Shown here: positions 21,004-43,283 of the stretch, in pieces
Position numbering within the stretch: the stretch's first letter is position 1
Layout of the letters: each line of letters opens with the position of its first letter
Virus record (IMG/VR): IMGVR_UViG_3300025543_000001
Location: 533 to 64,532 of that record
Source: a virus
Lineage: Duplodnaviria; Caudoviricetes
Strand: one strand, 5' to 3'
Length of the DNA stretch: 64,000 nucleotides
The notes under the pieces: model-generated
What the model was told of the DNA's origin: nothing
Database searches by the model: none
Seen by the model: the letters and a program-made list of their open reading frames with translations, nothing else
Position numbers and translations under genes: made by a program

Positions 21004-21930
21004 ATGGCATACCTAACTCAATACCAATACTACGAGAACGCTGGAGCTTCGCCTGAAGACGCGAACTGGGGTTCATATCAATACGTGAGTTTGCGCGATA
21101 TCGTCAGCAACTACCAGCTTATGTACAGCGGTAATAACGAGCTGGTCAACGAGAAGTCTCGATATAAGATTCTGTTTCACGCTAAGCGGGCGATACAGGA
21201 GCTCAACTACGATGCGTTCAAAGAGATTAAGGTATTGCAGCTTAACGTATCGGACGACTTGCGGTTTATCCTTCCTAGTGACTATGTCAACTGGGTTCGG
21301 TTATCTATGTTTAAGAACGGAGTAGTATTCCCCTTGACTGAGAATATTCAAGTTACTAGCGCACAGGCTTACCTACAAGACTCCAACAACCGAATTTTAT
21401 TTGACGAGACAGGGGCTGCACTAAAGCCAGAGTTTTCGCCTATTGATGAGGCTAGGCTGAATAAGACTTTGAAGTCTATGTACCTCAACGAGAATAGTCC
21501 ATATAACGGCTACGAGGGGTGGTGTATCGATGGGATGTGGTATTTTGACTTCCCTGTTGGTGGCGCGGCATTTGGCCTCAATACAGAGACGGCTAACGCC
21601 AATCCTACGTTTCGTATTGACCCGAAGTCTGGAGTCATTAACTTTAGTTCGGTGATGTCGGGTGAGAGCTGCATATTGGAATATGTGAGCGATGGTATGG
21701 AGGGCGGTGATGACTCACTAATTACGGTAAACAAACTTTTCGAAGACTACGTTTATGCGTATATCTCCTACGCATTACTGAACTCACATATGGGTACACA
21801 GGAGTACGTAGTGAATCGCTCAAAGAAAAATAAATCTGCTTTACTTAGAAACGCAAAGATTCGTATTAGCAATATCCATCCTGGGCGCCTTTTGATGAAC
21901 TTGCGCGGACAAAATAAGTGGATTAAATAA
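21004..21930 (+). CDS. Tail ring/structural protein
   Basis: 308 aa; LPSDYVNWVR and ILEYVSDG motifs; tail module position. Confidence 0.65.
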   Translation: MAYLTQYQYYENAGASPEDANWGSYQYVSLRDIVSNYQLMYSGNNELVNEKSRYKILFHAKRAIQELNYDAFKEIKVLQLNVSDDLRFILPSDYVNWVRLSMFKNGVVFPLTENIQVTSAQAYLQDSNNRILFDETGAALKPEFSPIDEARLNKTLKSMYLNENSPYNGYEGWCIDGMWYFDFPVGGAAFGLNTETANANPTFRIDPKSGVINFSSVMSGESCILEYVSDGMEGGDDSLITVNKLFEDYVYAYISYALLNSHMGTQEYVVNRSKKNKSALLRNAKIRISNIHPGRLLMNLRGQNKWIK

Positions 21931-24900: not shown

Positions 24901-27395
24901 AGCTTGACTTTTTCAATTGTTATGCTTTTGGAAATGGTGTTGAAAGCTATAAGATTGAGGACTCCTCTATCGGACAGTCATTTGCTTTAGGCGAGCGAAC
25001 CATACTGGTATCTGCTCAGGACTTCAAGCGGGCAGACCGCTTTGCCGACATCACGTACAGCGGCGTTTATAATGACGAGAGCAACGTAAATAAACTCAAC
25101 GAGTTCAACCTTGGCCTGCTTAACTTCAAGACTTTAGAAGATGTCTATGGCCCTGTTCAAAAGATGGTGGCTCGCGAGACGGACATACTGGTCTTGCAGG
25201 AAGACCGTATTTCTTACGTGCTCACCAATAAAGATGCAATTACAGATGCTGAGGGCGGCAATATCTTGACGGCAGCTCCTTTGATTTTAGGACAGCAGGT
25301 AGCTCGAGTAGAGGAGTATGGTATCTCAGCTAACCCTGAAAGCTACGCTGAGTTCGGTATGGATAAATACTTTACTGACGCTAAGCGAGGTTCTGTCATT
25401 CAGTTGCGCGGCTCTAGCTTCAGTAACGAGCAGCTCTCTGTGGTTTCTCAAGCGGGTATGCGCAGTTACTTCAGGGATTTATTCAACGCTAAGTTCAACA
25501 CCCAGAAGCTCGGTGGTTATGACCCATATATGGATGAGTATGTGGTATCATCAAATGAGAACAAGCTTCCCGTTGAAACGGCTTGTGTGAATTGCGATAT
25601 TAGCCAGACCATTAACTTGGCGGCGGCGGGAGACACCTCTGAGTTTTGCGTCAATTTGGGTGGGGTAGTGGGAGATGTAGTTATTGGATGGAACACACCA
25701 GCACTGGGGCCTGGGGCAGGAGCCACTACATTTAGTATAAACGCTAACTATAACGGAACCGATTACCCTAGTGGAAATATAACTACCGCAGGCACGTTAA
25801 CCATTTCCAAAGACTCTGTCAATCCTAACACAGTGGCTATTGTTGTGACGGCTAACGGTGGTTCGGTAAGCAACTTAAACTTCACTGTAAACTGCCCTGT
25901 AGGCAATGAACTTAAAATTATACAGGTAGCCCTGAATTTAAACTGGCAGCAAGCTAAGACCATACATAATGAGTTCCGATTTGTGGATGGCACAACTGAA
26001 AGCAATACCTATAACCAAGGCGTTATATTCGGAACGGGAACTGAGCCTGTAGTGTCTCAATACCAAGAGCTTACGGGGCTGCAAGGCACTACGGTATTCC
26101 CACCCAACGGGTCTACAGTATATGTTCAGGTAAGGAAGCAATCGGGCGATACGTTTAATTACGACCCAACCGCTTCTTCGTCTAATAAGTTGCAATACTT
26201 GCGTAGCAACACGCTCTATGAAAATAACCCTACTGACATAGCCGCCTTGCTGTCTGCTTCATCATCAAATGTATTGTCTGTAACTCCTAACACTTTAGGC
26301 TCACTCCTATACACAGGCGACTTTACGATGCCTAATAATTCCAATGATTACCTGTATCTTATTTATGACTACAGGTTAGCTCAATCCGCAGAGCTGTGCT
26401 CAGGGGCTACTAGCGCGGGAGCTTGTTGTAGCTGCGGTGCTTTGACCACCTTTTATTTAGACTCTAGTAACCTAAGTTCAGCAACATCGGTATATACTGA
26501 TGAAGGATTAACGACGCTTGCACCTAACCAGTTTTATTCTCAGCTAGTAAATGAAAATAATATAGTTCGTCAGCAGTCGGCAGGTGTCCTTTTACCAGCT
26601 ACATCGTGCGCTTCGTGCGACAGGAAATGTACTGACCCTGACCCTGTTCCTGCGCCTACTACTCCTGCTTTATCGCCGCGTCAGGTATATGATATCACAT
26701 ATGATTTGGCTTCGGGAGTTGGTGTAGTGCCTATTCGTTTTACGCCTGGGGGCGGTACGGGAATTTTTGCTACTTATAACAATGCAGTTACGAGTGATTC
26801 TAGCGCTACTAATCTCCTCAACACTCAAAACCCTGCTCACTCTTATTTTGAGGGGCCTTATTACGGTGATGACTCGGTATGTAATCCTCCTACAGGCATT
26901 AATATACTCCCTCTATACAACTGGGATGAAATAAACGAGGACTTTGATAATAGCAGCAGCACGGTGCCTATTAACATACAAGCCAGTGCCCTTACGAGCT
27001 TGACTACAGGGGCTGCTGGCAGCTATGTGCTTTATGTGTCTAAGACGAGCGCTACACCTTCAACTATGGACTTGAGGATTGTAAGCGCTTGTTCAACGGG
27101 CGTTCCTAACTGGTCGGTAGATGTGGATTGCCCTCGTATATTGACTGGTTTTGCTTCAAGCGCTAAAGCTAGTACTGAGGTAGACATATGCAATTCTATT
27201 ATTAACTCTACGCTTTATAACTTACCCGTGACAAACCCTAATGCATTTGGTATTCCTGCCGTTCGCGACTGGGTGTTTAAAGACAACCTCGGTGAGGATG
27301 TAGCTGACGACGGTTATTATAAGTTAAGTGGTGGCTCAATAGGATGTACCTATATCAGAGTTGTAAATGGGGTTATCGCATCAAAAACAAACTAA
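21930..27395 (+). CDS. Tail stabilisation/nozzle-like protein with C-terminal Cys-containing extension
   Basis: GRMNKSVDERLVPNGEY..ALN, LFFTDD.NPPRKIN, GNRLMYGNY, YGIS.NPES, GGYDPY motifs. Confidence 0.7.
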   Translation: MGNVKRHFIKGRMNKSVDERLVPNGEYINALNVRLGSTEGSEVGSVENSKGNTQLTTLQYKGVDLSDSAQCIGSFEDGVNETIYWFIHDGANATSSTGVVDMIVSYNTNSDLLVYHVVSTSILSFNPTFLITGVNKVEDLLFFTDDTNPPRKINVTRSYLEPTAGHVDQITEDDISVIKKPPRKAPTLQLIDVPGEENYLETNFISFSYRYKYIDNEYSALSQFTDVAFESSPFSLDPDTNFNDGMLNRYNTAVVGVNTGGADVIGIDICFKLGNDSDVRVMQKYIKEESGWPDGVVQTVNFTNQQIYTLLPSSEILRLYDNVPLVAQAQTVMGNRLMYGNYEDGYDLTTATGGRIDTNYTVERISQNLTTTLSLGSQNNGVDYTIDTASTVTVTNSDAFIDFSDIGQELKEGGVFGFGFTVSHQGFSGSGQASTPITVNHPTFTISFVFNLPQDYNSIYEMVNSPEFQAQLGSNLSASFQPVANCSSGSTFTDVYNCSITAPSGYTLVTTGITDGSQGVFLSSEQANVDEFSVQILAAQYNNTATPNNQYFEYFSVSNVTFSYQTEPSNKSLHSNRDYEVGIVYMDKYKRATTTLTSSQNTVFVPPVNSSTINRIRTTIPINMTAPSWADTYKFVLKQSRGAYDTIYSTTYYYDPSTTSYWFRLVGQDQALVESGTELIVKTDANGTVADEVKVTVLDKVSQPTNFLHLLQDSSDILEVPGLYMRLRAQDFSIDTSVNNLCYPTVVSKAPLSFAGSVNVNSTTTENYIFGQAIVNYPCFTTSGGAYTRIPIAQGSVVRIKIKFRKDDLGLCGLSNGAQFCRVTKTFTASQTYTDIKAFWDGEGLGAIIPNSMNCEVECQSSDGQNQNNYLSNLYSTTAGSDSLMVSTALGVNQMFFYEISDDPSPDANKRLYLRCVNGTRTDANSFNTANSTVKVEICVQEPGSLVVFETVPNEIADGVFFEGSENYDIVNGYHQGNIVNQDATTEGVVELDFFNCYAFGNGVESYKIEDSSIGQSFALGERTILVSAQDFKRADRFADITYSGVYNDESNVNKLNEFNLGLLNFKTLEDVYGPVQKMVARETDILVLQEDRISYVLTNKDAITDAEGGNILTAAPLILGQQVARVEEYGISANPESYAEFGMDKYFTDAKRGSVIQLRGSSFSNEQLSVVSQAGMRSYFRDLFNAKFNTQKLGGYDPYMDEYVVSSNENKLPVETACVNCDISQTINLAAAGDTSEFCVNLGGVVGDVVIGWNTPALGPGAGATTFSINANYNGTDYPSGNITTAGTLTISKDSVNPNTVAIVVTANGGSVSNLNFTVNCPVGNELKIIQVALNLNWQQAKTIHNEFRFVDGTTESNTYNQGVIFGTGTEPVVSQYQELTGLQGTTVFPPNGSTVYVQVRKQSGDTFNYDPTASSSNKLQYLRSNTLYENNPTDIAALLSASSSNVLSVTPNTLGSLLYTGDFTMPNNSNDYLYLIYDYRLAQSAELCSGATSAGACCSCGALTTFYLDSSNLSSATSVYTDEGLTTLAPNQFYSQLVNENNIVRQQSAGVLLPATSCASCDRKCTDPDPVPAPTTPALSPRQVYDITYDLASGVGVVPIRFTPGGGTGIFATYNNAVTSDSSATNLLNTQNPAHSYFEGPYYGDDSVCNPPTGINILPLYNWDEINEDFDNSSSTVPINIQASALTSLTTGAAGSYVLYVSKTSATPSTMDLRIVSACSTGVPNWSVDVDCPRILTGFASSAKASTEVDICNSIINSTLYNLPVTNPNAFGIPAVRDWVFKDNLGEDVADDGYYKLSGGSIGCTYIRVVNGVIASKTN

Positions 27396-30794: not shown

Positions 30795-33700
30795 ATGAAC
30801 GAACAGGTAATTGACGACTTATATGCGCGAGCCTTACAGAGTGGTTACAAGAAAGGACGTGCTGATTTCGTTCAATTGATACAATCAAATGATGATGTAT
30901 TCAATGATATGTATCAGTATGTTCAGTCTAAGGGATATGCTAAAGACGCTCAAAGTTTCTCCTCCCTTGTAGGAAAGCGAACCGCCCCCACTGTAAAAAA
31001 AAAAGTTACGGCATCCGTATCGGAGCCTGGTTCTTTGGTCTCACCAGAGCCTCAAGTACCTGTTGCAGAGGCTGTCGTTGAGGAAGAGGTTCAGGACTTA
31101 ACGGTTGCTGAGCCTGACTTCTTTGAGGAGCGTATGGCTATGGTATCTCCTCAACTTATTGACCGAGGTGATGAGGACCAGGTGGCTCAAGAACTTACCG
31201 ATGTATTTAAGCCATACGGATTTGAGGTAGAGCCTACAAGCATAGGCGATGCGCTAAAGGTAACCGCAGCTAACGGACAGACTATTGAGGTTGACCTTGA
31301 CCCTATGGAGCTTCCGTCTTTCCTAAGCGTAGGGCGCTTTGGTTTTACTGGCGATATGGACACTGAAACGGAGAAGTCAGAAGCGAAAAAGCTACAAAAC
31401 TTTTTGAGAAAAAATCGACAGGAAGGGTTGGATGCTCCTCGTAGGCTTGTAACCCAAGAGCAAATCGACAATAACGTAAAGAAAATTAATGACGCCGAAG
31501 AGGTAATCAATAAACAGTTCTTGTCTTACGTAGAGCGAAAAAGTATTTTTGACGCCGAGTTTGCTGAAGCTTTCCCTGTGAATGACGTGCAGGCAGTAGC
31601 AGCTGACCCAGAGGGGTACAATGATTTTGTACAAAGAGGCAGGGACTTAGATATTGAAGCTCAGGGATTACGTCAGAACGATGAGCTTCTTAAGGAACAA
31701 GGTAGGGAGCTTGATAAGGCGGCTGGAGAGTACACGTCTATGCTTGCCAATAGAGGTGATTGGGGTGGAGGCTTGTGGAACAAAATGCTAACGGGTATCG
31801 GAAGGATTTCTGAAGAGGCGTACAACGTAGCAATGGATAAGGTTACGGGGGCAATCCCTTTGATGACCACCGACCCTGCTTACTACCAGTCTCGTTTTAC
31901 CGAGGAGGCTGAACGAAGAGGTATAACCCCTCCTTACGGGACAGATGGAGCTAAAGCCACCAGAGCTGAGTTCCTGAGTTTTATGACCAGTATAGACTCC
32001 GATGTTCGCAATGAAATTGGAGACAAAGTTGTTGATGACTATAAAAAAGAACGGAAGTTTGGGGAGCCAGTCGATGTAGAAAAGGCTGTGAACCGATACT
32101 CTCAATACGCTGCTTCTGAAAATATGAAGCTGAAGGGTGGTGAACTTGAGGCCGTTCGTAATGGGCTCTTGAATGTACTAGGCGATTCAGAAACCACGCC
32201 TGAGTGGACTCAGCTAAAAGAGCAGGGTTTTTGGGGAGGTGCCTTTTTAGGTTTGGCGGAGTCCATACCAGCTATGGTTATTCCAGGGGGATGGGCGGCT
32301 CGTACGGCGGCTATGTATGGTCAGGTTGCGAGCCATCTAGGGCAGGAGATGGCTAGCATCCCTGAGTTTCAGGATGTGTCTGAGAAAGAAAAAGCTATGT
32401 TCAAGCTACCGCTTGGAATTGTAGTGGGTGCATTAGAAAGTATTGGTTTTAGAAACGTAGTTAATCAAAAGGGATTGCTTAATAGCATACTTATGCAGGC
32501 TCTTAAGAAATCCCCTAAGAATGTAACGGGTAAAGCTTTTAATGATATTGTAGACCGAGAGGTAAACAGTATGATAAGTAGGGGGCTGCTAAAAGTGGGA
32601 GCTGGTGGTCTTGCTGAGTTTGAGACTGGTCTCGCTCAAGAGATTGCCGATATAACAGGTAAAGAAATTTACAATGCTCTAAAAGAAAAGGAGATGTTTG
32701 ATACTCCTGAGTCTTTTGGTGAAGGATTAGAGCAGGTTGTGATTGGCGGACTTCAGGAGGCGGTGGGCGGTTTAGTGTTAGGCGTTCCAAATGCAGTAGC
32801 CACTTCTTCCGTTAAGAAGGATTTTACTGATATGGACGACGCTACGTTTGAGCTTTTTCAAAACGTAAGCAAACAAACGGATAGCGGTCAGTTGAGCTAT
32901 CGCCATATGTTTTATACGAACCTTAAGTCTAAAATTAACCAAGGTAAAATAAGTAAAAAGGAGGCTCAGCAACAAATGGATAACCTCGACGAGGTAATTG
33001 CCGTTAACCGAGATATCCCGTCCGACTTAACGATAGACCAGCAGAAGCGTTCTCTTGGTATCTTACTTAGGAAGAAAGACTTACAGGAACAAATTGAAGG
33101 GAAAGACCCTATCCTTGTGAAGCGTCAGCAAGAAGAACTGAACGGACTTAACAGGGAACTAGACCAGATACTATACGGAACACCAGAAACAGATGCCATT
33201 CAAGAGCCAAGCCCAGAGACGGTGGATGCACCAGAACCTACCCGAGGTAGCGAAGCGGTGGGAGAAGGAGTACCCGACATCGGAGAACCTACCGCAGAGG
33301 TTGAAGCCGAAGACCAAGTTGCAGAAGCGGCGCCGACAGCGGAGGTCGCGGTAGAAGATGACGAGTCTGGAGGCAGTGCTGAATTTAGGGAGTTTAACAA
33401 AGGTCGTCGTAACCTAGAGGAGAAAGGTTATACGCAGCAAGCTGTACGGGACATTATTAGCCAAGCAATATCCTCACTGGATATGGGTAGGGCAGGCGAC
33501 GTAAGGAAATTAGTTAACTCATTTAAAAAACTAAAAGCCGAGTCCATCATACCAAAAGCTGCGGATTTGTCATCGGGAGATACTGTTGGTATGGCGATAA
33601 TGGATTCGTCAGAGAATCTGTCTAATGATATTTACCGTTCACTGGCTAGAGGGGAAGTTTCGTTAGAAGAGTTTCAGGCTTTCGCAAAGAAATTTAATCA

Positions 33701-36700
33701 ACCACTACCTGAAGCTGCGCCTGTGGTAGAAGAAACTGTGTCGGAGCCGACACAAGAGGTGACGGAGGAAGAGCAGGTTGACATCGACGATTTCTTCAGT
33801 GATAAAGAGATAGACGGCGTAGACAAGGTAGATGACAACTTAGTGGTGAACCGCAAGCAGCTCAGCGAAGACAAAGCGGAGACAGCTCAGGACGAGAGAA
33901 AGATAAGCCGCATCAAGCAGATAGCTAAGAAGGCGGCGGTATCGCTGAAGAAGCAGTTCCCTGATGTAAGGATTGTACTTCACGAAACAGAAGGGCAGTA
34001 TAAGCGCTTTGCTGGCAAGCGAGCTCGAGGGGCTTACGTAAAGGACGACAAGACTAAGACTATTCATATCAACCTCAGCATAGCGGACCTCTCAACTGTC
34101 CCTCACGAGGTGTTCCACGCATTGCTTTTGGAGGCTGCTGCAACCGACCCGCAGGCGTTGGTGATAGCGCGTAATATGCTGGAGTCGGTTCGGAAAGTTG
34201 TCGACCCTAAATCCGATATGTCTAAGGCTATCGAGAAGTTCGTCGCTAAGTATGAGGACGTACCTGTCATCCAAGACGAAGAGTACCTCGCCGAGCTGAT
34301 GGGTATCCTTTCGTCGCAGTACCGTACGCTGGACAAGCCAAGTAAAAATACAATCAAGGAGTTCTTGCGTAAGCTAGCCAAGCTAGTGGGTATCGACACC
34401 AAGTTTGGTTTAGATGAGTTCTTCGGTCCTGAGTTCTTGGAGAGAGACGAGCAGGTCATCGACTTACTCAATACCATATCAGGCAAGGTATCCAAGGGGC
34501 AGTTTATTGAGGCGGCTGACGTGAAGACTATGGGTGATATCCTTGCTGAAGCCACTCCAGCTGAGCAAGCACAAGCACAGCGTGAAGTTAGAGACTTCAA
34601 ACGTAAGGAGAGGGAGAGGAAAGCTGCTGAAGACAATCTCATTAACAGGAGTCAGGCTGCTTCTAATTTTACTGACGAACAATTAACCGCATTTGCCAAG
34701 GAAGGTATTCTATTTCACGGCTCTGATATGCAGAAAGAGTTTTTCGATAGCCGTTTTATAAAAGAGTTTAATTACGGATATGGATTTTATTTCACTGGAG
34801 TGCCAGCGCTAGCTCGTAAGTACGGAGATAAACTTTCCTTTGTTGACACCAAGCAGTTTAATTTACTAGACGGCGATGAGGATATAACTCAGGAGGACGC
34901 TCAAGATATGCTTGATAACCTTCCTGGATATGGGCTAGACAATGAGTTTGTAGAGGAATTTCTTCAGGATTATATCGATGATGAGGGTTTTGAAAACGAC
35001 CCACAGTCTTGGTCTATGTTTATCACTGAGTACATATCAGATTATGAATCCAAAGCTGAGATATTTTCTGAATACTTAGAGTCTGAGTTGGGATTCGATG
35101 GTATGACTACTGTTGAGAACGCTGGAAAGGGGGCTGTTCCTACAGTAGCTGTTGTATGGAACTTCGATTTACTCAATGACAACGTCTTACAAGACCCTAC
35201 TAAGGAAAAAGTCATTGAAGAGGAAGCTCCCAAAGAGGTAACTCGAAAAGAAGAGGCTACTAAAGATGTTCTAGACTTTGTATCTCTCGTCAGCAAGGGA
35301 ACGAGTGAGGATGTAATATATCTAAACAATAGGAAGGCTACACCGCGTATGCAGGTGGTTACCGAGGAAGACGGTAAGCCTGTGACGTTCTATCACGGAA
35401 CGGATAAGAAGTTTGACAAGTTCGAACCACAGAAGTCAACGCGTACGATTCTGATGTCTCAGTACGAAGTGAAGACGCCTGCTATATTCTTCACCCCTGA
35501 CGAGGCGGAAGCTCGGGAGTATGGAGATAATATCATCCCCGTAAACCTACAGTTTGAAAAGCTAGTCGAGGACAATATCGACGAGGCGGCTCAAATCATA
35601 ACCGACTACTACGTAAAAGAGAAGGACGGTGTTATCGAAGTGCAGGATGGTGTCGTTGACCTTTCCGATTACTATGACGAAGCTACCGATTCTTACAATA
35701 ACAACTGGGTCAAAGACGTACTTGACGAAGCAGAAGGTATCGACTGGATGCTCCTCGATGAAGAGGCTTTGGTAGAAAAGTTCAAGGAAGCTGGCTTCGA
35801 TGGAACTAAGGTGTACGAAGGAGATAAAGCTTTCTCTGTAGCCACATTCTATCCTGAGAATATCGTAAGGCTAGACCAAGGTGTGGCTCCACGCCAGCAG
35901 GTTTCAATAACAGATACCGATAGTACCAACCCGTCTTTCGAGAAGGGCAGTATGAAAGACTTTAGTGTTGAGGGCGGTATCCTTGAAATAGGTAAAGTTA
36001 AAGGCGCTAAACAATCTAGCGTCCTTCGTCTAAGTGTCGACGAAGATAACCGTAGGCAAGGCAAGGCCACTGAGCTTTTAAAAAGCGCTCTAAATTATAC
36101 TAACGGTATGCTTTCGGCTATGGCGTCTAAGGATGCGGCTGTAGGTTTAAACTATAAGTTGGGTATGCGAGCGTTTTCTCCTGATGGTAATGAATTATCT
36201 CTTGAGGAAACCAAAAATCAACGAGCCGAGAACGCAGGGGAGTCTATCCGTATGGAGCTACCCGATTCTAAAAAGGGCAACAACTACAAAGCCTTTGACG
36301 AAGGGATGGCTCCTCGCCAGCAGGTAGCTGACATACCTCAGTCTGCTAAAAATGTCCTTTACGGAGACAGCGATGTTCTACCAAAACCGTCTAAGAAAAA
36401 GTCAAATTCACAGGTAGCGCAGGACCTAGCTGAGGTAGCGGCTGAGTATTATGGCGGTGAGATAATTACAAGTAAAACGATTACTCCAGAGCAAGAAGAA
36501 ACCATTACTGAGGTAGGTACAGAGGAGGCTATAGCTGCTTTTGAGGATAGTGGAAAGAGCGCAGCCGACTGGTACTCTACAGCGATTGAAAAGGCTATGG
36601 CTGTGGCGGCAGTTATTCACCCATCTCTAAGTTCGAAAGAAGAAGCAAGTAAGTATGAGGCTTTTGCCAAAGAAAAAGACCCTGTAGCGGCAGCGAACTT

Positions 36701-39700
36701 TGTTATGCGCGTCGCCTTGGCTATTACCTCGCAGAACTTAAACGTAGAGGCCAACGCGAAATATGCAAACGAGCAGTTTGATATATTTAAAAAGACAGGT
36801 CGATTTGATGCATCTAGAGAATACGGAACCAAAGCAAAGTCGATATCATCTAACTTAAGACTGGCTAACGTTCTCGTCGAAAAGATTGGCCTGAACGCAA
36901 CAGAGGATTTTGTCCTTCAAGAGTTCAATGTGTCTGAGCTAGAGGTGGCGGCGTCAAAGGCTTTAGGCAAAAACATAAAAGTATCTGGCCTCCGTAACGA
37001 TAGCGTAAACGGAGCGGCTTTATTCGGTCCTAAGATTGGTCAAGGCTTCCTACAGAATCTGATGGGTAAGTTTGACCCCGTAACGATAGACCTGTGGTTG
37101 CGGCGCACTTGGGGGCGATGGACAGGAGATGTAGTGGGAGTGGGAGTAAAGGAAGAACGTATGGCTCGCTTGTTAAATGGATTAAAAGAAGCCAAGAAAG
37201 ACACGGGAGTAGAGGTGCCTGACGTTATGAAAAAACATCGAGTCGTAAGAAAGGTGCGGCCCTCAACGGGCGCCTCTTACGATACGATGTCTGATAAGTT
37301 TATTTCTGAGCTCGAGGAGGATGCAGACTTCAGAGATAAGATAGCTGCTTTTGCTAAAACGCTATCAACTAAAGGAGACCTTATGTACAAGCTCATCAAG
37401 AACGAGCCTATGTCGGACGGTCTTTACAAAGCCTTTATATCTGGTGAGAAGACGTATGGTCAAACAGCGAATCAGTTACAGCGTATTAAGGATAAGCTTT
37501 CGGCTAAGTACAAGGACTATGTCTCTAAAGAAAAAGCTAAAGGAAGAACTCCTCTTAAAAAATCAGAGTGGGTAAAAGGTCAGAACCAAAAAGACGGTCG
37601 TGTAAACTCTCCCAATAACGAAGCTATATCAGCTCGTAAACCAGAGTGGGTTAAAGCGGCGACTTCCATAACGAATGACCTCAAGCCAATTGACATACCT
37701 ACCAATCAAGACAGGAAGGTAATTACTCGTATTGTAAACGATATAAAAAAGCGTATGACCGAGCAAGGGTACCCCGTTACCAACGCTGACGTTCAGGCTT
37801 TGCTCTGGTATCCCGAGAAGGATATCTGGGCTAAACTAAGGGGAGAAAAAGAGTCTAACTTAAAACAATCTTATGATGACCAATTCATTAAAATCGCAGA
37901 GCAAAAAGGGCTCGGAAAAGAAGCCAAGTCAGCCGCAGAAAATGTTGAGCGTAAACGAGCCGCACAACCTAGCGGAGTTGATGAGCGAAAAACAGATGTC
38001 GGAGTTTCTCGACTTACTGATAAAGAAGGCGTAGCCCCTCGCCAGCAGGTTATCGAGGACGTGACGGCAAAAGAGCTTGACACTCCGTTAGACAGGCAGC
38101 AAAGGGTGTTTAGGTCTGGAGACTTAGAAAATAAAGCTGAGCCTCGGTGGAAGTTTAGGTCTAGTCGAGAGACTGGTCATTTTGGAACAGGGTTTTACTT
38201 TTTTGGAACTAAAGAGCAAGCAGACAAGTACGACGCTAGGGATGTATCTGAGCTTGATATCGATAAATACAACTTAGCAAAGGCGACTAAAGAACTTCAC
38301 CAAGCACTAAGAGTAATCAACGACCGTTACAATGAGTATTATACAGCTGAAGCTGTTGATGAACTAAAAAAGGAACCTTTAAGGCAAGCGGTGCCTACTT
38401 TTTTTATTGAAGAGGTAGCTGAAGCAGCGGGGATGGATGTCATCAGTGAAGCTGAGGCAGAGGCCGCAGCAACAGAGGTGACAAAGGCTTTGACGAAGGA
38501 TGGCAACCCTGCGTTCGGGGACTCTGTTTCTACTCTAGTGATGAAGGCCCTGGGATTTGACGGTGTAAATGCTGTAGGGACTAGTTTGGACAACTCAAAA
38601 TACGGCACAGTAATCTATGACCTTAAAGAAGACGTAGCCCCTCGCCAGCAGAAGCCTTATCCATCAGGCCCCGAAGAGGCTGCAAAGATGGGCTACCTCG
38701 TTCACGCTTCAGATAAGTCTCGCGACTCATTTGACAAGAAGTTCATCAAGGGCAGAAACAGAACAGAACTGGGCGCGTTAGGTTTTTACTTTACAGCTAA
38801 CGCTCAGAAGGCAAAGGACTACGGAGGTGAATACACCTACATAGACCCCGCGGATATGAACCTGTTAAACCTCGACGAGGTAAAGGGAAATAAACTACAA
38901 GGCTTCCTGTCTGACTTAGAAAGAAATCTAGGTAAATTGTCATCCTACAGAATGCGGCTTATAGCGGCTCAAGACAAAACTAGAAGCATTTCAGAATTCA
39001 ACGAGCTTGATGCCGAACTAAAAAAGGTTGACGCTCAAATAAAAGCCCAGTCTCCTTTTGGCACATCGGCTAGTTCTCAGGATAGAGTGCTTAAGGCGTT
39101 AAAGAAGGCGAAGGCTAAAAATCTTATGGAAGCCTATAGGGTGTCTGAATACGCAATAGAGAGTAGACTCGGCAGAAAAAGCGATACTGACGCAGCGTTT
39201 AGCGATTTGCTTTTTAACGCTGGATACGACGGGATTTACGAAGGACCTGGCTTATACAAGGTAGCAATTTTCGATATAGACGGCCTAAATGATGCTATCG
39301 TAAGGGATGACGTAGCCCCTCGCCAGCAGTTGAGTGATATCGCTACTCCGCTTCCGCGTCAGCAGAAGTCGGTACGTGAGGTGGTGCAGCAGGCGCGAGA
39401 CAATAACTTCAAGGACGCAGCAACCAAAGACTTCCTCCAGCGTAAGGGTGTACCAACAGCAGATATCGACAAGGCCATCAAGACCTTGGACGATGTGTAT
39501 GCCCGAGTGATGAAGGAGATTGACGGCGTCATCACTAAGTCTCAGAAACGTGGTGTCGACTTCGACACACAATTGAAGAACGCGCTGGCTTACCTACAAG
39601 GCACTAAGCTCTACGAGGATACCACTGATATCCACAGGGAGAAGTTGATGCGTGAGGTACGCGCTAAATTCGATAAGAAAGAGAAGCGAGCACCGTCAGC

Positions 39701-42700
39701 GAAGCGTATCCTTGGAAACATCAAGGACGTCAAGAAGGTGACGCTATCCGAGAAGGAGGCGCTCAAGATGCAGCTGAGGCTTGTCGCTAAGACCGCTAAG
39801 ACCACAGCTAGAGCTTTGGTGGTGGCGGGCAATGAACTGACTAAGTCACTGAAGGAGATGGTCAAGGGTGGTGTCATCACTGCCAATCAGATGAGCTCTG
39901 TCCTGCGTCGGTTCAGCCGAGTGGACTTGTTCAACCCTGCCAGCATCGATAGCTTCTTGGACTATATGGCTAAGATATTCGCCGATGCGGAGTACGGAGC
40001 GAAGATTGCTAGAATCAAGAAGCTACTTCCCCGAGCCAAGAAGAATATAAAGTCTAAGATTGGCGTTGCCGACGTGCTCGGAGATACCCTCACTAAGCTG
40101 TTCAATGTCAACCCTACGTTGATACCGATGGAGATGCTTGAGGACTATCAAAATCTCCTTGAGATGATGGGTGCTGCAAAGAAGGTGCTCCCACTTGCAG
40201 ACATCAACGACGTAACGGAGATGGCTAATAAGCTCCTGAACGCGGTGTACGAAGAGGTATCTATGGCTGAGGACTTGGCCGAGGTATTTGCGAACTACGA
40301 GAATAAAGTCATCAAGGACGGTAAGCTCGACTACGCAGCTACCGTTCGCGCTATGATAGCTGACCAGACCATATCAGAGGCGGAAGCCACTGTAATGATT
40401 AAGTATAAGTCTCGTATCGTAGAGCCTACAAAGAAAGAACCTAAGACCGAGGCAGAGCTAGCCGAGGAAAGGGCGGCACTTATGTCGGCGGTTGAGGCTG
40501 CCAAGGTCAACGTCTCGCGTCTGGTTATGGAAGAGGAACGAACCCTAGCTCGTCAGCTCTCCAAGCTGATGCGTACCGAGGCTATCGAGAGGCTCAGCAA
40601 CCAGCAACTAGAGACGCTGCTAGCTGTCATCGACAACATCAACAACGGCTTCGTGACCCACGCGGCTAATAGGTTGTATGTAAATATGAACGCTTTAAAC
40701 AATGATAATCAATTGGCAGACTCTTTACAGGAAGCTGACCCGTTATCCATATCAAAGTTTGTAGCCAAGGTAAAAGGTGGTATTACTCAGAATAATAAAT
40801 TCTTTGAAGCTATCAAGAGACGACCATTGGCATATATAGATTCATTGTTCGGAGACTTCAAAACTAACCGTATATACAACTCTGTATTTAGACCATTGGC
40901 AAAAGCTTTTGATTCTATGAATGTAGAGATTCAAAGAATCGAGGAGCGGTTAGATAATGCAGAAAATGTAGTAAGAAAGTCTTTTAAACGCAATCCAAAT
41001 AAAGTTCGCTTGTCATCGTACAAGAGGATGACATATATGTTACAGCGTGAGTTTGAAGCTAATCCTGATAACGGACAGGTAAACCCTGCTGCTGACTTCA
41101 TACGGGCCACCATTGACCACATCAATGAAGGCAAGTCTTTCTTCAAGGGCAGAGACGCAGAGATGCTTCAGCAAATACTTGACGACTTCGGTGTAAGCAT
41201 TAAGGACGCGGACGGAAATGAAGTTATACAGATTGACTCTCAGAAGCTGTACGACTCATTCAATAAAGCAGAGCGAAATGCACTTGCCGTAGCTGAAGAC
41301 ATAAACAAGTCTCTTGCAAGCAAAGCTTCATTTACAGCAGCAGTAATTCAAGGTAGAAGAGCCGATATATTAAACCAGTACGCACACCATAACGTACTGA
41401 GTAGTAGCGAGCAGGCTGACAAGTCAACAAGTATATCAGAAATTCAGAAATACAACCAGTCACTTCGGGCCTCTACCAAAGCTAAGAATTCAATTGAGCG
41501 TACGGGAGCCGTAACTCCATTGAACTTTGATGTGTTAACGTCGGTGTCGCGAGGCGCTAAAATGATGCTAACAGACTTCTACCTTACAGACCCTGTACGC
41601 ACATCACGAAAGACCATATCGAATACGCGTAAAGTTTTAGAGGAAAGGGGCAACGCAACAAAGCAGGACAAAGAAATATTAAACGCAATTGACCAAGCCC
41701 TTGAACTTGCCCTTGACGACGTCTTAACCAAGACTTTTACGCAGGGAACTATGGTAGACAACATCATTCAGTACATATCGAAGACGGGCTACCGAGTAGT
41801 TTTGGCTTCAGTGAGTCGTTTTGGAGCGGAAGGGTTGAGTAATAGTGGATTTGTATCCTTGTTTGCTCCGAAACAAATGGCGTTGGGTTTGTCGAAAGAG
41901 AATATGAAACTGTCCATTGGTAGTGAGGGAACCGCAGTAGATATTCTGTCTGCTCTAGGTAGCACACAAATTTCTAGGTTATTTCCTGACCAGATGCTGT
42001 CTGGACGTATGATTGACACTTCAGTTCTTGGGGAAAAGTCTGGAGATAAAGGGGGTAGAGCTTATGGCGAGGTAGCCAACAAGATGTTGCAGATATATAA
42101 TGGAGTAGTAAAACCTGGGAAAGAGGGTGTCGAGAGGGTGGCTGATGGATTAATATCTACCCCAGATAAAGCCGTTATCCGACCGCTATGGTTTGGGTCT
42201 TTTGAATATAAGTTCGAGGAACTTACAAAGAAGAAACCAGATATGGACAAGATAGCCGCAAACGATGAGGCTTATATGGATGCTAATCAAAAAGCCCTAG
42301 ACGAAGCTACTGACTATGCGGACCAGATGACGACATTTGCTGGAGCCGCCGACAATCCATTCAAAGGTCTTCTTAAAGGCAAGTACCCGTCAAGCGTGAA
42401 GCAGTCGGCTATGCTTCAGGCGTTTAACATATCTAACAGCTTTATGACCCGCTTCTTGATATATGAATTTATATCAGCTCAAATAGGAACGTACGCTATG
42501 ATGGGTAGGGGTATGATTTCTAAACGTCAAGGTGCGGCACTCCTCGGGGCTGTTGCCACCCGTATGGTAGTGTATACTTTGTTAACCACTGTATTTGCTC
42601 AGATATTTAAGCAAGCGTTTGGATTGGGTGATGAGGAAGAAGAGAAAGATATAGAGAAGCAGTTCGGTCAGGCACTGGCCTCTACTGCCGTCAGCCTTAT

Positions 42701-43283
42701 AGTAGGCCGAGACTTCGGTAACGTAGTGAAGGGGCTCCTTAACTACGGAGTGGAGAACCTCAACGAAGAGTTCCTAGACGAGCTACGTGACGGAGACTAC
42801 GACCCGTACCGCGACGCTATCGCGTACACCTTTGTTCCGCCAGACAGGGAGTACAAGTCCAACACGCTAGCCGATTACATCCGTAACCTGATGGGTCCGT
42901 TCGGACCCTTCTATAAGATGGCGGAGTTCGGAGTGAAGACGCTTAGCGCCGACGAGAAGAAAGACCCAGCGGCACGTATACGTCAGCAGCGAGAGCTCAA
43001 CGAACGACTCCCGCTCGAGTTACTTGGAAACTTAGGATTGATTCCTCTGTACCGTGATATAAGGGCGCTCTTACTAGCCGATATCTACAAGGGTATGGGC
43101 AAGGAGAAGAAAGGAAGTAGTACGGGTATGACTAAGGCTGAAAAGGCTCAGATGAAGGAATACTTCCCAGAAATGTATGAGATGCAGATGCAGCTAGAAG
43201 AAGATATGAAGAACCCTGAGCTCGAACGTATGATGAAAGAGCAGGAGAAGGCTATCGAAGAAATGATGAAGAGTTTAAAATAA
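30795..43283 (+). CDS. Giant (4162 aa) polyvalent virion/ejection protein: HExxH metallopeptidase-like, four ADP-ribosyltransferase-like, GNAT-like and HhH-like modules
   Basis: HEVFH at 34104-34118; FHGS/YHGT/FRSG/VHAS plus (G)F(Y/F)FT and G(F/Y)DG motifs; VDEDNRRQGKA; VTIDLW..QALLW. Confidence 0.7.
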   Translation: MNEQVIDDLYARALQSGYKKGRADFVQLIQSNDDVFNDMYQYVQSKGYAKDAQSFSSLVGKRTAPTVKKKVTASVSEPGSLVSPEPQVPVAEAVVEEEVQDLTVAEPDFFEERMAMVSPQLIDRGDEDQVAQELTDVFKPYGFEVEPTSIGDALKVTAANGQTIEVDLDPMELPSFLSVGRFGFTGDMDTETEKSEAKKLQNFLRKNRQEGLDAPRRLVTQEQIDNNVKKINDAEEVINKQFLSYVERKSIFDAEFAEAFPVNDVQAVAADPEGYNDFVQRGRDLDIEAQGLRQNDELLKEQGRELDKAAGEYTSMLANRGDWGGGLWNKMLTGIGRISEEAYNVAMDKVTGAIPLMTTDPAYYQSRFTEEAERRGITPPYGTDGAKATRAEFLSFMTSIDSDVRNEIGDKVVDDYKKERKFGEPVDVEKAVNRYSQYAASENMKLKGGELEAVRNGLLNVLGDSETTPEWTQLKEQGFWGGAFLGLAESIPAMVIPGGWAARTAAMYGQVASHLGQEMASIPEFQDVSEKEKAMFKLPLGIVVGALESIGFRNVVNQKGLLNSILMQALKKSPKNVTGKAFNDIVDREVNSMISRGLLKVGAGGLAEFETGLAQEIADITGKEIYNALKEKEMFDTPESFGEGLEQVVIGGLQEAVGGLVLGVPNAVATSSVKKDFTDMDDATFELFQNVSKQTDSGQLSYRHMFYTNLKSKINQGKISKKEAQQQMDNLDEVIAVNRDIPSDLTIDQQKRSLGILLRKKDLQEQIEGKDPILVKRQQEELNGLNRELDQILYGTPETDAIQEPSPETVDAPEPTRGSEAVGEGVPDIGEPTAEVEAEDQVAEAAPTAEVAVEDDESGGSAEFREFNKGRRNLEEKGYTQQAVRDIISQAISSLDMGRAGDVRKLVNSFKKLKAESIIPKAADLSSGDTVGMAIMDSSENLSNDIYRSLARGEVSLEEFQAFAKKFNQPLPEAAPVVEETVSEPTQEVTEEEQVDIDDFFSDKEIDGVDKVDDNLVVNRKQLSEDKAETAQDERKISRIKQIAKKAAVSLKKQFPDVRIVLHETEGQYKRFAGKRARGAYVKDDKTKTIHINLSIADLSTVPHEVFHALLLEAAATDPQALVIARNMLESVRKVVDPKSDMSKAIEKFVAKYEDVPVIQDEEYLAELMGILSSQYRTLDKPSKNTIKEFLRKLAKLVGIDTKFGLDEFFGPEFLERDEQVIDLLNTISGKVSKGQFIEAADVKTMGDILAEATPAEQAQAQREVRDFKRKERERKAAEDNLINRSQAASNFTDEQLTAFAKEGILFHGSDMQKEFFDSRFIKEFNYGYGFYFTGVPALARKYGDKLSFVDTKQFNLLDGDEDITQEDAQDMLDNLPGYGLDNEFVEEFLQDYIDDEGFENDPQSWSMFITEYISDYESKAEIFSEYLESELGFDGMTTVENAGKGAVPTVAVVWNFDLLNDNVLQDPTKEKVIEEEAPKEVTRKEEATKDVLDFVSLVSKGTSEDVIYLNNRKATPRMQVVTEEDGKPVTFYHGTDKKFDKFEPQKSTRTILMSQYEVKTPAIFFTPDEAEAREYGDNIIPVNLQFEKLVEDNIDEAAQIITDYYVKEKDGVIEVQDGVVDLSDYYDEATDSYNNNWVKDVLDEAEGIDWMLLDEEALVEKFKEAGFDGTKVYEGDKAFSVATFYPENIVRLDQGVAPRQQVSITDTDSTNPSFEKGSMKDFSVEGGILEIGKVKGAKQSSVLRLSVDEDNRRQGKATELLKSALNYTNGMLSAMASKDAAVGLNYKLGMRAFSPDGNELSLEETKNQRAENAGESIRMELPDSKKGNNYKAFDEGMAPRQQVADIPQSAKNVLYGDSDVLPKPSKKKSNSQVAQDLAEVAAEYYGGEIITSKTITPEQEETITEVGTEEAIAAFEDSGKSAADWYSTAIEKAMAVAAVIHPSLSSKEEASKYEAFAKEKDPVAAANFVMRVALAITSQNLNVEANAKYANEQFDIFKKTGRFDASREYGTKAKSISSNLRLANVLVEKIGLNATEDFVLQEFNVSELEVAASKALGKNIKVSGLRNDSVNGAALFGPKIGQGFLQNLMGKFDPVTIDLWLRRTWGRWTGDVVGVGVKEERMARLLNGLKEAKKDTGVEVPDVMKKHRVVRKVRPSTGASYDTMSDKFISELEEDADFRDKIAAFAKTLSTKGDLMYKLIKNEPMSDGLYKAFISGEKTYGQTANQLQRIKDKLSAKYKDYVSKEKAKGRTPLKKSEWVKGQNQKDGRVNSPNNEAISARKPEWVKAATSITNDLKPIDIPTNQDRKVITRIVNDIKKRMTEQGYPVTNADVQALLWYPEKDIWAKLRGEKESNLKQSYDDQFIKIAEQKGLGKEAKSAAENVERKRAAQPSGVDERKTDVGVSRLTDKEGVAPRQQVIEDVTAKELDTPLDRQQRVFRSGDLENKAEPRWKFRSSRETGHFGTGFYFFGTKEQADKYDARDVSELDIDKYNLAKATKELHQALRVINDRYNEYYTAEAVDELKKEPLRQAVPTFFIEEVAEAAGMDVISEAEAEAAATEVTKALTKDGNPAFGDSVSTLVMKALGFDGVNAVGTSLDNSKYGTVIYDLKEDVAPRQQKPYPSGPEEAAKMGYLVHASDKSRDSFDKKFIKGRNRTELGALGFYFTANAQKAKDYGGEYTYIDPADMNLLNLDEVKGNKLQGFLSDLERNLGKLSSYRMRLIAAQDKTRSISEFNELDAELKKVDAQIKAQSPFGTSASSQDRVLKALKKAKAKNLMEAYRVSEYAIESRLGRKSDTDAAFSDLLFNAGYDGIYEGPGLYKVAIFDIDGLNDAIVRDDVAPRQQLSDIATPLPRQQKSVREVVQQARDNNFKDAATKDFLQRKGVPTADIDKAIKTLDDVYARVMKEIDGVITKSQKRGVDFDTQLKNALAYLQGTKLYEDTTDIHREKLMREVRAKFDKKEKRAPSAKRILGNIKDVKKVTLSEKEALKMQLRLVAKTAKTTARALVVAGNELTKSLKEMVKGGVITANQMSSVLRRFSRVDLFNPASIDSFLDYMAKIFADAEYGAKIARIKKLLPRAKKNIKSKIGVADVLGDTLTKLFNVNPTLIPMEMLEDYQNLLEMMGAAKKVLPLADINDVTEMANKLLNAVYEEVSMAEDLAEVFANYENKVIKDGKLDYAATVRAMIADQTISEAEATVMIKYKSRIVEPTKKEPKTEAELAEERAALMSAVEAAKVNVSRLVMEEERTLARQLSKLMRTEAIERLSNQQLETLLAVIDNINNGFVTHAANRLYVNMNALNNDNQLADSLQEADPLSISKFVAKVKGGITQNNKFFEAIKRRPLAYIDSLFGDFKTNRIYNSVFRPLAKAFDSMNVEIQRIEERLDNAENVVRKSFKRNPNKVRLSSYKRMTYMLQREFEANPDNGQVNPAADFIRATIDHINEGKSFFKGRDAEMLQQILDDFGVSIKDADGNEVIQIDSQKLYDSFNKAERNALAVAEDINKSLASKASFTAAVIQGRRADILNQYAHHNVLSSSEQADKSTSISEIQKYNQSLRASTKAKNSIERTGAVTPLNFDVLTSVSRGAKMMLTDFYLTDPVRTSRKTISNTRKVLEERGNATKQDKEILNAIDQALELALDDVLTKTFTQGTMVDNIIQYISKTGYRVVLASVSRFGAEGLSNSGFVSLFAPKQMALGLSKENMKLSIGSEGTAVDILSALGSTQISRLFPDQMLSGRMIDTSVLGEKSGDKGGRAYGEVANKMLQIYNGVVKPGKEGVERVADGLISTPDKAVIRPLWFGSFEYKFEELTKKKPDMDKIAANDEAYMDANQKALDEATDYADQMTTFAGAADNPFKGLLKGKYPSSVKQSAMLQAFNISNSFMTRFLIYEFISAQIGTYAMMGRGMISKRQGAALLGAVATRMVVYTLLTTVFAQIFKQAFGLGDEEEEKDIEKQFGQALASTAVSLIVGRDFGNVVKGLLNYGVENLNEEFLDELRDGDYDPYRDAIAYTFVPPDREYKSNTLADYIRNLMGPFGPFYKMAEFGVKTLSADEKKDPAARIRQQRELNERLPLELLGNLGLIPLYRDIRALLLADIYKGMGKEKKGSSTGMTKAEKAQMKEYFPEMYEMQMQLEEDMKNPELERMMKEQEKAIEEMMKSLK
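33193..33354 (+). CDS. Overprinted small basic protein (53 aa) in the +1 frame of the giant gene
   Basis: MPFKSQAQRRWMHQNLPEVAKRWEKEYPTSENLPQRLKPKTKLQKRRRQRRSR; ATG 33193, TAG 33352-33354. Confidence 0.65.
   Translation: MPFKSQAQRRWMHQNLPEVAKRWEKEYPTSENLPQRLKPKTKLQKRRRQRRSR
33738..33753. repeat. GTGTCG-N4-CGACAC palindrome inside giant gene (codes within ETVSEPTQ)
   Basis: gtgtcggagccgacac. Confidence 0.9.
35883..39365 (+). repeat. Dispersed (V/M)APRQQ-coding 18-bp repeats between domains of the giant protein
   Basis: Copies at 35883, 36306, 38031, 38634, 39312 (last three identical GTAGCCCCTCGCCAGCAG), plus PRQQ at 39354. Confidence 0.9.
39553..39568. repeat. GTGTCG-N4-CGACAC palindrome
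   Basis: gtgtcgacttcgacac. Confidence 0.75.

Follow-up and report, generated by a model that had tools for sequence, protein, structure and literature searches.

A conserved small basic gene very probably nested in the giant virion protein gene of a tailed phage

Fully nested genes are textbook rarities in tailed phages (e.g., Rz/Rz1), and gene callers suppress them. In lambda, the small gene of the Rz/Rz1 pair is embedded in the +1 frame with a start of its own, and embedded, overlapped and separated arrangements occur among relatives. The B, K and E genes of phiX174 are the classical case of overprinting, in which the nested frame is young and lineage-restricted. Small cargo proteins of virus particles are also well described: T4 internal proteins carry an N-terminal capsid-targeting sequence, and adenovirus has core peptides. 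Here we describe an open reading frame (ORF) at positions 33193-33354 of a 64,000-nucleotide (nt) stretch of tailed-phage DNA (“the window”; IMG/VR record IMGVR_UViG_3300025543_000001, positions 533 to 64,532), which is nearly the whole of a virus record, complete at 64,532 bp and bearing direct terminal repeats. Comparison of the ORF with its relatives makes it very probable that it is a real, selected and separately expressed gene nested in the gene of a “giant” virion protein.

A hidden ORF in the +1 frame inside the giant gene had been reported in an earlier note on this DNA, made from the sequence alone, and both its coordinates and its peptide were reproduced exactly. The ORF runs from ATG to TAG and encodes 53 amino acids (aa), MPFKSQAQRRWMHQNLPEVAKRWEKEYPTSENLPQRLKPKTKLQKRRRQRRSR; its offset from the start of the giant gene (33193-30795 = 2398; 2398 mod 3 = 1) gives the +1 frame, and it lies wholly within the larger ORF on the same strand, in a different frame, with both frames open. 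Across the same bases the host frame reads ...DAIQEPSPETVDAPEPTRGSEAVGEGVPDIGEPTAEVEAEDQVAEAAPTAEVAVEDDE, an acidic stretch of low complexity. The host gene has the features of a polyvalent protein, being a multi-domain giant, the last gene of the structural module, and the carrier of a PolyVal-type domain (ART-PolyVal, aa 1525-1690; 54.6 bits against a cutoff of 31.2); it also has a domain in common with the “structural protein” of the Flavobacterium phages called elemo. The sole cultured relatives of the giant gene infect Flavobacterium and the best match among metagenome-assembled genomes (MAGs) is a Flavobacteriaceae bin; the phage probably infects a member of the Flavobacteriia. Length alone is no proof of a gene here, since between 31 and 36 kb the + strand has eight more alternative-frame ORFs, 33-50 aa long; what takes the small ORF beyond chance is its homology together with its frame-specific conservation.

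The peptide had been thought to resemble a widespread stand-alone small phage protein, and the homology search that the earlier note proposed for the 53-aa peptide bore this out abundantly. In a collection of 5.8 billion proteins, nine small proteins among 13 candidates were homologous to it (E 3.3e-19 to 8.7e-6), and a tblastn search of GenBank phages with the peptide matched 11 records. The match begins at the initiator Met of annotated stand-alone genes in Streptomyces phage FlowerPower (72 aa) and phage 023Pt_psg01 (39 aa), whose products have the conserved N-terminus followed by a K-rich tail, as in the window peptide. A family profile (A2), built from a 69-sequence alignment, recovered 4314 representative clusters with E ≤ 1e-3, of which 964 reach E ≤ 1e-10, with matches nearly always from residue 1; MPF is the start of 133 of the 150 best hits, and 72 of these 150 are longer than 100 aa and carry the module at the N-terminus. 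The consensus of this module is MPFKSxAQRRWM...PExAKRWEKE.P...LP, followed by a K/R-rich tail; in the alignment M1, P2, F3, S5, Q8, P17 and A20 are invariant, and K4, A7, R9, M12, W23, L33 and P34 are at least 90% conserved. Every family hallmark (all seven invariant residues, W23, and L33-P34) is found in the window peptide, which ends in KRRRQRRSR and has a length of 53 aa, where family lengths are mostly 39-62 aa; in its own genome the profile matches the small gene at E 1.2e-26. On this comparison the family is very large and normally stand-alone.

Two Pfam families were tried as relatives and set aside. DUF3008 (PF11450) gave no HMMER hit to the peptide at E ≤ 10, to the 69 members at E ≤ 1, or to 10 further members, and its atlas feature score of 0.84 was below the lead threshold; Oxygenase-NA (PF09859) matched weakly in 5 of the 69 members (best E 0.0031, below cutoff) and was treated as noise. 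A second subfamily (MPFKSxAQRRKFAELLVxGxIS...EEWNRETG...LPERVKPK) is common in MAGs of Acidobacteriota and Gemmatimonadota (L105-L168), with some copies on contigs of 0.4-4.6 Mb, as prophage or cellular genes; among 51 such weaker-scoring MAG copies only one is nested in a host that reaches 500 aa. Weak module matches begin in unannotated gaps between annotated genes of phage C75C1 (L003, OQ984151 34579-34647; E 0.3) and, likewise in an unannotated gap, of Synechococcus phage S-CBS2 (L004, NC_015463 34225-34293; E 9); these gaps may hold missed free copies, at E-values that are not significant alone.

A scan of IMG/VR gave at least 599 pattern matches, of which at least 346 were confirmed, and the best 80 of these confirmed loci were examined. 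In 42 of the 80 an open frame of at least 500 aa on the same strand encloses the small ORF (1116-3576 aa in 40 of them, several ended by the locus border; the other two GC-rich and doubtful), in 7 it lies in a host of 165-410 aa, mostly the gene in the scaffold position, and 31 loci carry a free copy. In every nested locus the host frame is the small frame +2, i.e., the small ORF is in the host +1 frame. Searches with pieces of the giant protein (tblastn) identified the hosts as orthologous giant genes, with 25-48% identity in conserved parts; in a subset of them the junction that the ORF occupies is the same, namely that between the aa 401-800 homologue and the domain following it. When the orthologous giant genes were checked in the +1 frame, ATG and open frame proved to be kept. 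The observations that the earlier note had named as fatal (no homologues, and stops or a missing ATG in this frame of the orthologous giant genes) thus turned out the other way. In four loci (L034, L031, L064 and L008) the orthologous giant gene is wholly upstream and the small gene starts 1-10 nt past its stop, so that the pairing is kept while the position differs. In a quick tree of the giant C-terminal domain (13 rows, midpoint root; loci whose best high-scoring segment pair was shorter than 400 residues, and exact duplicates, left out), nested copies stand on deep branches, and three of the loci with the small gene after the giant gene form one clade (Shimodaira-Hasegawa-like approximate likelihood ratio 98) within the clade that holds the nested window and L026 copies (support 100); thus one change of state suffices.

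The small ORF also has hosts of a second kind. Six AT-rich loci (L044, L061, L069, L071, L077 and L083) carry, in this order, a portal gene (phrog_6547), a host of 280-400 aa, and phrog_13704, the portal and capsid-like families being identical to those of the window, and the host in L069 is orthologous to the scaffold-position gene of the window at 15773-16861 (33% identity over 364 aa, E 3e-55). Neither a six-frame reading of that window gene nor the profile at E ≤ 10 revealed a decayed remnant in it. An independent set (genome_contigs; 127 confirmed matches, 80 kept), drawn entirely from MAGs, contained 27 window-type copies, of which 10 are nested; for 8 of these the host has 1071-2460 aa, and for 2 it is of scaffold size. 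The window and 10 of 10 other nested genomes (9 of these 10 at least 92% complete) have one profile hit per genome, the nested copy. As the earlier note had expected, annotation misses the gene: in the cultured Flavobacterium phage vB_FspP_elemoE_6-9C (NC_055854) a 42-aa member (E 2.1e-10, at 52512-52640), with TTC for Phe3, lies unannotated in the +1 frame of the 3694-aa “structural protein” gp18. Taken together, the gene is kept nested in the host +1 frame across this phage lineage. As a separate observation, in two loci (L024, 3472-3603; L025, 4828-4959) the small ORF lies in an open frame upstream of the large-terminase ATPase domain (phrog_2), with a strong AGGAGG ahead of the small ATG; the terminase may or may not start upstream of the small ORF.

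The pattern of substitution shows purifying selection on the small frame, with the host frame only held open, and bears out the view that a nested and conserved basic gene has the acidic linker as its by-product. Entropy was computed for 39 unique nested sequences over their first 27 codons, which align without gaps, and came to 0.58, 0.41 and 0.90 at codon positions 1, 2 and 3 of the small frame; the host wobble position (small-frame position 2) was the least variable (Wilcoxon p = 7e-4 for position 3 > position 2, and 0.016, both descriptive), the opposite of a region coding for the host only. Amino-acid identity among these sequences was 0.715 in the small frame vs. 0.510 in the host frame. 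Changes synonymous in the host are suppressed: in a codon alignment of 10 orthologous hosts (the near-identical pair L005-L006 dropped), conserved host residues had the identical codon in 886 of 967 cases (92%) within the overlap vs. 5782 of 11587 (50%) outside it, and the excess had the same direction in 44 of 44 pairs. In 9 of 9 comparisons the first 27 small-ORF codons were at or near the top in nucleotide identity over ~850 host codons, while directly past the small stop the identity of the host linker to L005/L007 drops to 0.27-0.49 and more distant orthologues are unalignable. Contigs of other genotypes in two DNA metagenomes, which come from different studies, align to the window over ~33184-33358 only; their loose ends are at 33184, 33187 and 33358, and depth is higher over those bins. 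The overlap is thus a conservation island in a hypervariable acidic linker. In metagenome X12, contigs join 33349 to 33725, skipping 375 nt in frame of the hypervariable linker; the joint was not used as evidence, the shorter side being only 24 letters.

The open host frame, in turn, is maintained at a visible cost in the choice of codon for Phe3. When the gene is nested this codon must be TTC, because TTT-AAG would make TAA in the host frame, and among unique IMG/VR sequences it is TTC in 46 of 46 nested copies, with 14 TTC and 13 TTT in free ones (Fisher p = 2e-7, likewise descriptive). The same holds for loci with a GC content below 0.42 and AAR as codon 4 (nested, TTC in 31 of 31; free, 4 TTC and 9 TTT) and for the MAG set (nested, TTC in 10 of 10; free, 5 TTC and 11 TTT). 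The would-be host frame has stops in 21 of 27 free copies.

How the small frame is translated can be approached through its leader, which had been described as A-rich and is so: 50% of the 20 nt before the ATG are A, vs. 31% in the host-gene background (93rd percentile). At 46 unique nested loci the leader A fraction is 0.57 vs. 0.35 in their own hosts, with 34 of the 46 at or above the 90th percentile, and ATG ends all 45 unique nested leaders listed. The minimum free energy of the segment from -30 to +30 is -3.67 kcal/mol vs. -9.09 kcal/mol in the background (median percentile 0.98), and 39 of 45 loci reach the 0.8 percentile or more (p = 4e-12, again descriptive). Shine-Dalgarno (SD)-like 4-mers occur in 0 of 32 AT-rich loci (5.85 expected) and in 7 of 14 loci at a GC content of at least 0.44 (3.07 expected). 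Most nested loci have a stop in the small frame 0-12 codons upstream, directly before the ATG in L040 and L049, which leaves almost no room for feed-in by frameshift. We infer that ribosomes initiate internally and independently at the conserved ATG, on the late transcript of the giant gene; a leader that is rich in A and unstructured would be used where SD pairing is weak and would be replaced by SD-like motifs in GC-richer relatives. Bacteroidota are known for SD-independent initiation on A-rich leaders, and the affinity of the phage to Flavobacterium and the Flavobacteriaceae fits such a start.

The two frames yield products of opposite charge (mean net charge +13.5 for nested members and -10.0 for the host frame on the same bases), because AAG and AGA are read as GAA and GAG one base earlier; the pairing of frames is thus tolerated as a linker. 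The K/R codons would give the host a harmless acidic linker, which would make dual coding cheap. A confident AlphaFold2 model from the 69-sequence alignment (mean predicted local distance difference test 84.5) has helices 6-15 and 17-26 as a hairpin, followed by an extended segment with the conserved LP and a basic helix at 42-52. Longer relatives carry varied domains behind the module, usually with a short basic run in between: InPase (153.5 bits), Cupin_2, DUF5661, S-AdoMet lyase / DUF3293 and DUF87 and, below curated cutoffs, ParB-like, DnaJ, AAA and Gly-zipper domains (9 of 42 long members scanned had any Pfam hit). In L045 (10001-10747) and L076 (3422-4741) the module forms the start of proteins (248 aa and at least 440 aa, respectively) that gave no Pfam or PHROG match, the latter directly following an 848-aa ORF. 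Free copies follow portals of more than one type (lambda-type, SU10-type, phrog_156) or a terminase of the T7 type, and in FlowerPower the small gene adjoins the holin. Tentatively, the small protein could be a virion-associated polycationic partner that is co-made with the head-module proteins and has the N-terminal module as a docking tag: the module would dock the protein (or, in other phages, the fused enzymes) to nucleic acid or a component of the head, and DNA would be neutralised or bound by the basic tail. A partner or DNA-condensing role, as the earlier note had proposed, would fit the mean charge and the linkage to head-module genes.

Several points weigh against a separately expressed gene for a virion protein. 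No match of known function turned up in a PDB sequence search (best E 0.1, a 13-residue coincidence), Foldseek found nothing in PDB at E ≤ 0.001, and against BFVD it found only uncharacterised small phage proteins without known function. Pfam and NCBIfam gave no match to the window peptide and its best match in PHROGs is phrog_1375 at E 0.13, a membership that is transitive only, through 6 of 13 relatives scanned (a nested copy in L020 included) that match this entry over the N-terminal module at E 1.5e-5 to 4.6e-3. Carriers of the family differ in their type of portal, which argues against one specific structural partner. Nesting is not obligatory, as some orthologous giant genes have no internal copy and carry the small gene downstream, and three “nested” calls may be chance open frames: L024 and L025 (terminase host, GC 0.63) and L057 (GC 0.64), where 208 and 77 codons are open upstream in the small gene’s own frame. 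Terminase is not counted as a confirmed host, since long open frames arise by chance at such GC contents. The nested loci are related by descent, and the p values given above are therefore descriptive only. As to expression, an A-rich stretch is almost by construction unstructured, and the window leader has no SD-like motif, its initiation mechanism being derived from composition and folding. RNA-library contigs cover the ORF in 2 of 2 RNA runs (X15, 33109-33391; X16, 33176-33334), but such contigs cannot show transcription, starts, level or translation, just as the absence of RNA-contig cover at 32400-33100 carries no meaning.

A +1 shift of ribosomes on the giant gene just before the ATG, which would fuse its N-terminal ~800 aa to the basic peptide, would be a way of reading this frame without a start of its own; programmed frameshifts are known in phage structural genes, the small ORF is in the host +1 frame at every nested locus, and the window has no SD. 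We consider this very improbable, as the ATG is kept in every nested leader listed and Met1-Pro2-Phe3 is invariant, the same sequence is the annotated N-terminus of free genes and the start of most of the best profile hits, the small frame is closed shortly upstream in most loci (in the window by a TAG 10 codons before the ATG), and the leader is unstructured, as at start sites. The chance is very slim, too, that the nested copy is a non-functional relic of a free gene swallowed by the giant gene, or an ORF open by chance, despite the free copies elsewhere and the alternative-frame ORFs of 33-50 aa that are common in the giant gene. This account is already disfavoured by nested copies that persist on deep branches, among giant proteins only 25-48% identical in conserved domains, by substitutions that track small-frame codon periodicity with host-synonymous sites frozen only inside the overlap, and by the nested copy being the sole one in 11 of 11 genomes. 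The sharp island of nucleotide conservation might be taken for a nucleic-acid signal (an RNA structure, regulatory site or packaging signal) in which the open +1 frame is incidental, and synonymous suppression alone cannot separate RNA elements from overlapping genes. Its probability is next to negligible, however: variation is concentrated at small-frame third positions and amino acids are kept through synonymous changes, the free homologues are ordinary genes, 21 of 27 with stops in the “host” frame, the region is unusually unstructured, and the module is fused in frame to enzymes.

The remaining rival concerns function only. Rather than a virion partner, the product could be a late nucleic-acid-binding or host-directed factor (a regulator, an anti-defence protein, or a ribosome or RNA binder) whose N-terminal module recognises a ligand common to all hosts. 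That carriers have different portal types and come from many host phyla is easier to reconcile with such a universal ligand than with a single structural partner; SAM lyase, InPase, cupin and P-loop domains occur fused to the module, the FlowerPower gene is beside the holin and not among head genes, and the second subfamily is found on MAG contigs of megabase scale. Against this factor, the small gene at the loci examined is nearly always part of the head or virion module (following a portal or terminase gene, within the gene in the scaffold position, or within or just past the giant gene), and the fused domains are of kinds found in polyvalent proteins “likely to be packaged in the capsid” in the main text of PMC5512222. 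The late factor is a possibility held as tentatively as the virion partner, and our guess is that the two are about equally likely.

Taking the separately expressed nested gene as the preferred reading, one may go further and suppose that the small gene is the older one, that head-module genes repeatedly grew over it, and that the MPFKS module is a cross-phylum capsid loading or docking tag, a proposal that we regard as rather unlikely. It would bring together a module plus tail found free, nested in the giant or the scaffold-position gene, or 1-10 nt after the giant gene, with scaffold-position nesting in phages of the same portal and capsid families; the frame would always be the host +1 because K/R codons are read there as an innocuous E-rich linker. 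As a loading tag, the module would bring the polycationic tail, or enzymes, into the capsid for delivery with the DNA, the enzyme cargo being InPase, SAM lyase, nuclease-like and kinase-like domains. If true, a general capsid-targeting signal has been overlooked by annotation.

Even on the preferred reading alone, the largest gene of an aquatic phage lineage that is widespread conceals a nested gene of deep conservation, whose family numbers thousands of clusters, and the “linkers” of giant polyvalent proteins can hide genes. The locus offers a concrete, statistically clean test case for detecting genes that overlap, and it flags an uncharacterised, portable N-terminal module that may explain cargo addressing in phage heads. 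Flavobacterium phage elemo provides a cultured system that is amenable to host-silent knock-outs and to virion proteomics.

The features of the locus are collected in Table 1. Elsewhere in the giant protein, a (G/D)(V/M)APRQQ motif occurs six times between modules (aa 1699, 1840, 2415, 2616, 2842 and 2854; window 35880-39370); the repeats look like processing sites, e.g., for a maturation protease that would divide the polyvalent protein. Two more very large virion genes, at 822-7832 (+, 2336 aa) and 21930-27395 (+, 1821 aa), match phrog_10356/17273 and phrog_14478 (“virion structural protein”), so that the phage has three giant structural genes in total. A GroEL-type chaperonin is encoded at 60354-61979 (+; phrog_5725, E 2e-131), and in phage 023Pt_psg01 a GroES-like protein is encoded two genes downstream of the free MPFKS gene.

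Table 1. Features of the small ORF and of its host gene in the window (positions are those of the window).
Feature	Position	Strand	Remarks
Host gene: giant polyvalent-type virion protein, 4162 aa	30795..43283	+	End of structural module
Small-frame TAG stop	33160..33162	+	10 codons 5' of ATG; limits read-in from upstream
A-rich, weakly structured leader ahead of internal ATG	33173..33192	+	Taken as translation initiation region
Host-frame acidic linker	33192..33356	+	Host aa ~800-854, from same nucleotides as small ORF
Nested small gene (very probable)	33193..33354	+	53 codons plus TAG; +1 frame of giant gene 30795..43283
N-terminal “MPFKS” module, codons 1-37	33193..33303	+	Helical hairpin plus LP motif; alignment and AlphaFold2 model
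Polybasic tail, variable, codons 38-53	33304..33351	+	Predicted helix 42-52
Hypervariable rest of host linker	33355..33680	+	Directly after small ORF stop

In the literature searched (in the case of PMC5512222, its main text) we found no description of this gene, module or nested arrangement. The closest entry, phrog_1375, is a function-less PHROG without mention of nested copies, and the string “MPFKS” in a phage paper (PMC12919940) is, where it occurs there, an unrelated C-terminal string. The host gene resembles the phage polyvalent proteins, which the main text of Iyer et al. (PMC5512222) considers likely to be packaged and injected: it is a giant multi-module protein with ART-PolyVal, and several domains fused to the module elsewhere, such as InPase and DUF3293/SAM lyase, are domain types of those proteins. 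In that main text “overlapping”, “frameshift” and “linker” occur 0 times, and neither a nested gene nor the MPFKS module was found there. The ShiLan insertion of a phage methylase is described (PMC11855218) as carrying a hidden HNH gene while open in the host frame, and our locus is likewise a stretch open in the host frame that carries a hidden gene; unlike that homing endonuclease in its mobile insertion, the small gene has no nuclease domain, and its only sign of mobility is the differing positions across lineages. With T4 internal proteins and adenovirus core peptides there is a functional analogy only, i.e., a short N-terminal tag on cargo and small basic DNA-associated peptides; the PDB sequence search and the Foldseek searches of PDB and BFVD found no relation in sequence or fold.

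The lambda Rz/Rz1 pair comes closest in architecture, with a small gene wholly in the +1 frame on the same strand and, at our loci as among its relatives, more than one arrangement (nested and just downstream). It differs in that Rz1 is a secreted lipoprotein of the lysis cassette, whereas the window peptide is polycationic and encoded among head and virion genes, in a host that is a giant multi-domain protein, with the overlap in a disposable linker. A spanin outer-membrane subunit (Rz1-like) was rejected, since the peptide has no Cys and no signal sequence, nor a hydrophobic N-terminus. With phiX174 B, K and E the locus has in common two proteins from one stretch of DNA in different frames and, if our reading is right, internal initiation inside a translated gene. 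Unlike phiX174, where the nested frame is the young one, genome compression is no obvious driver in a 64.5-kb phage, and the nested gene is old and widespread (4314 clusters), the host linker being a by-product that is held open only. De novo overprinting was therefore rejected: the nested family is far wider than the host lineage and mostly free-standing, and it is the host-frame stretch that is less conserved. Thus the small ORF is well supported as a gene, with an Rz/Rz1-like, fully embedded architecture and an unusual polarity, in which the old gene is the one inside and the linker of its giant host the by-product.

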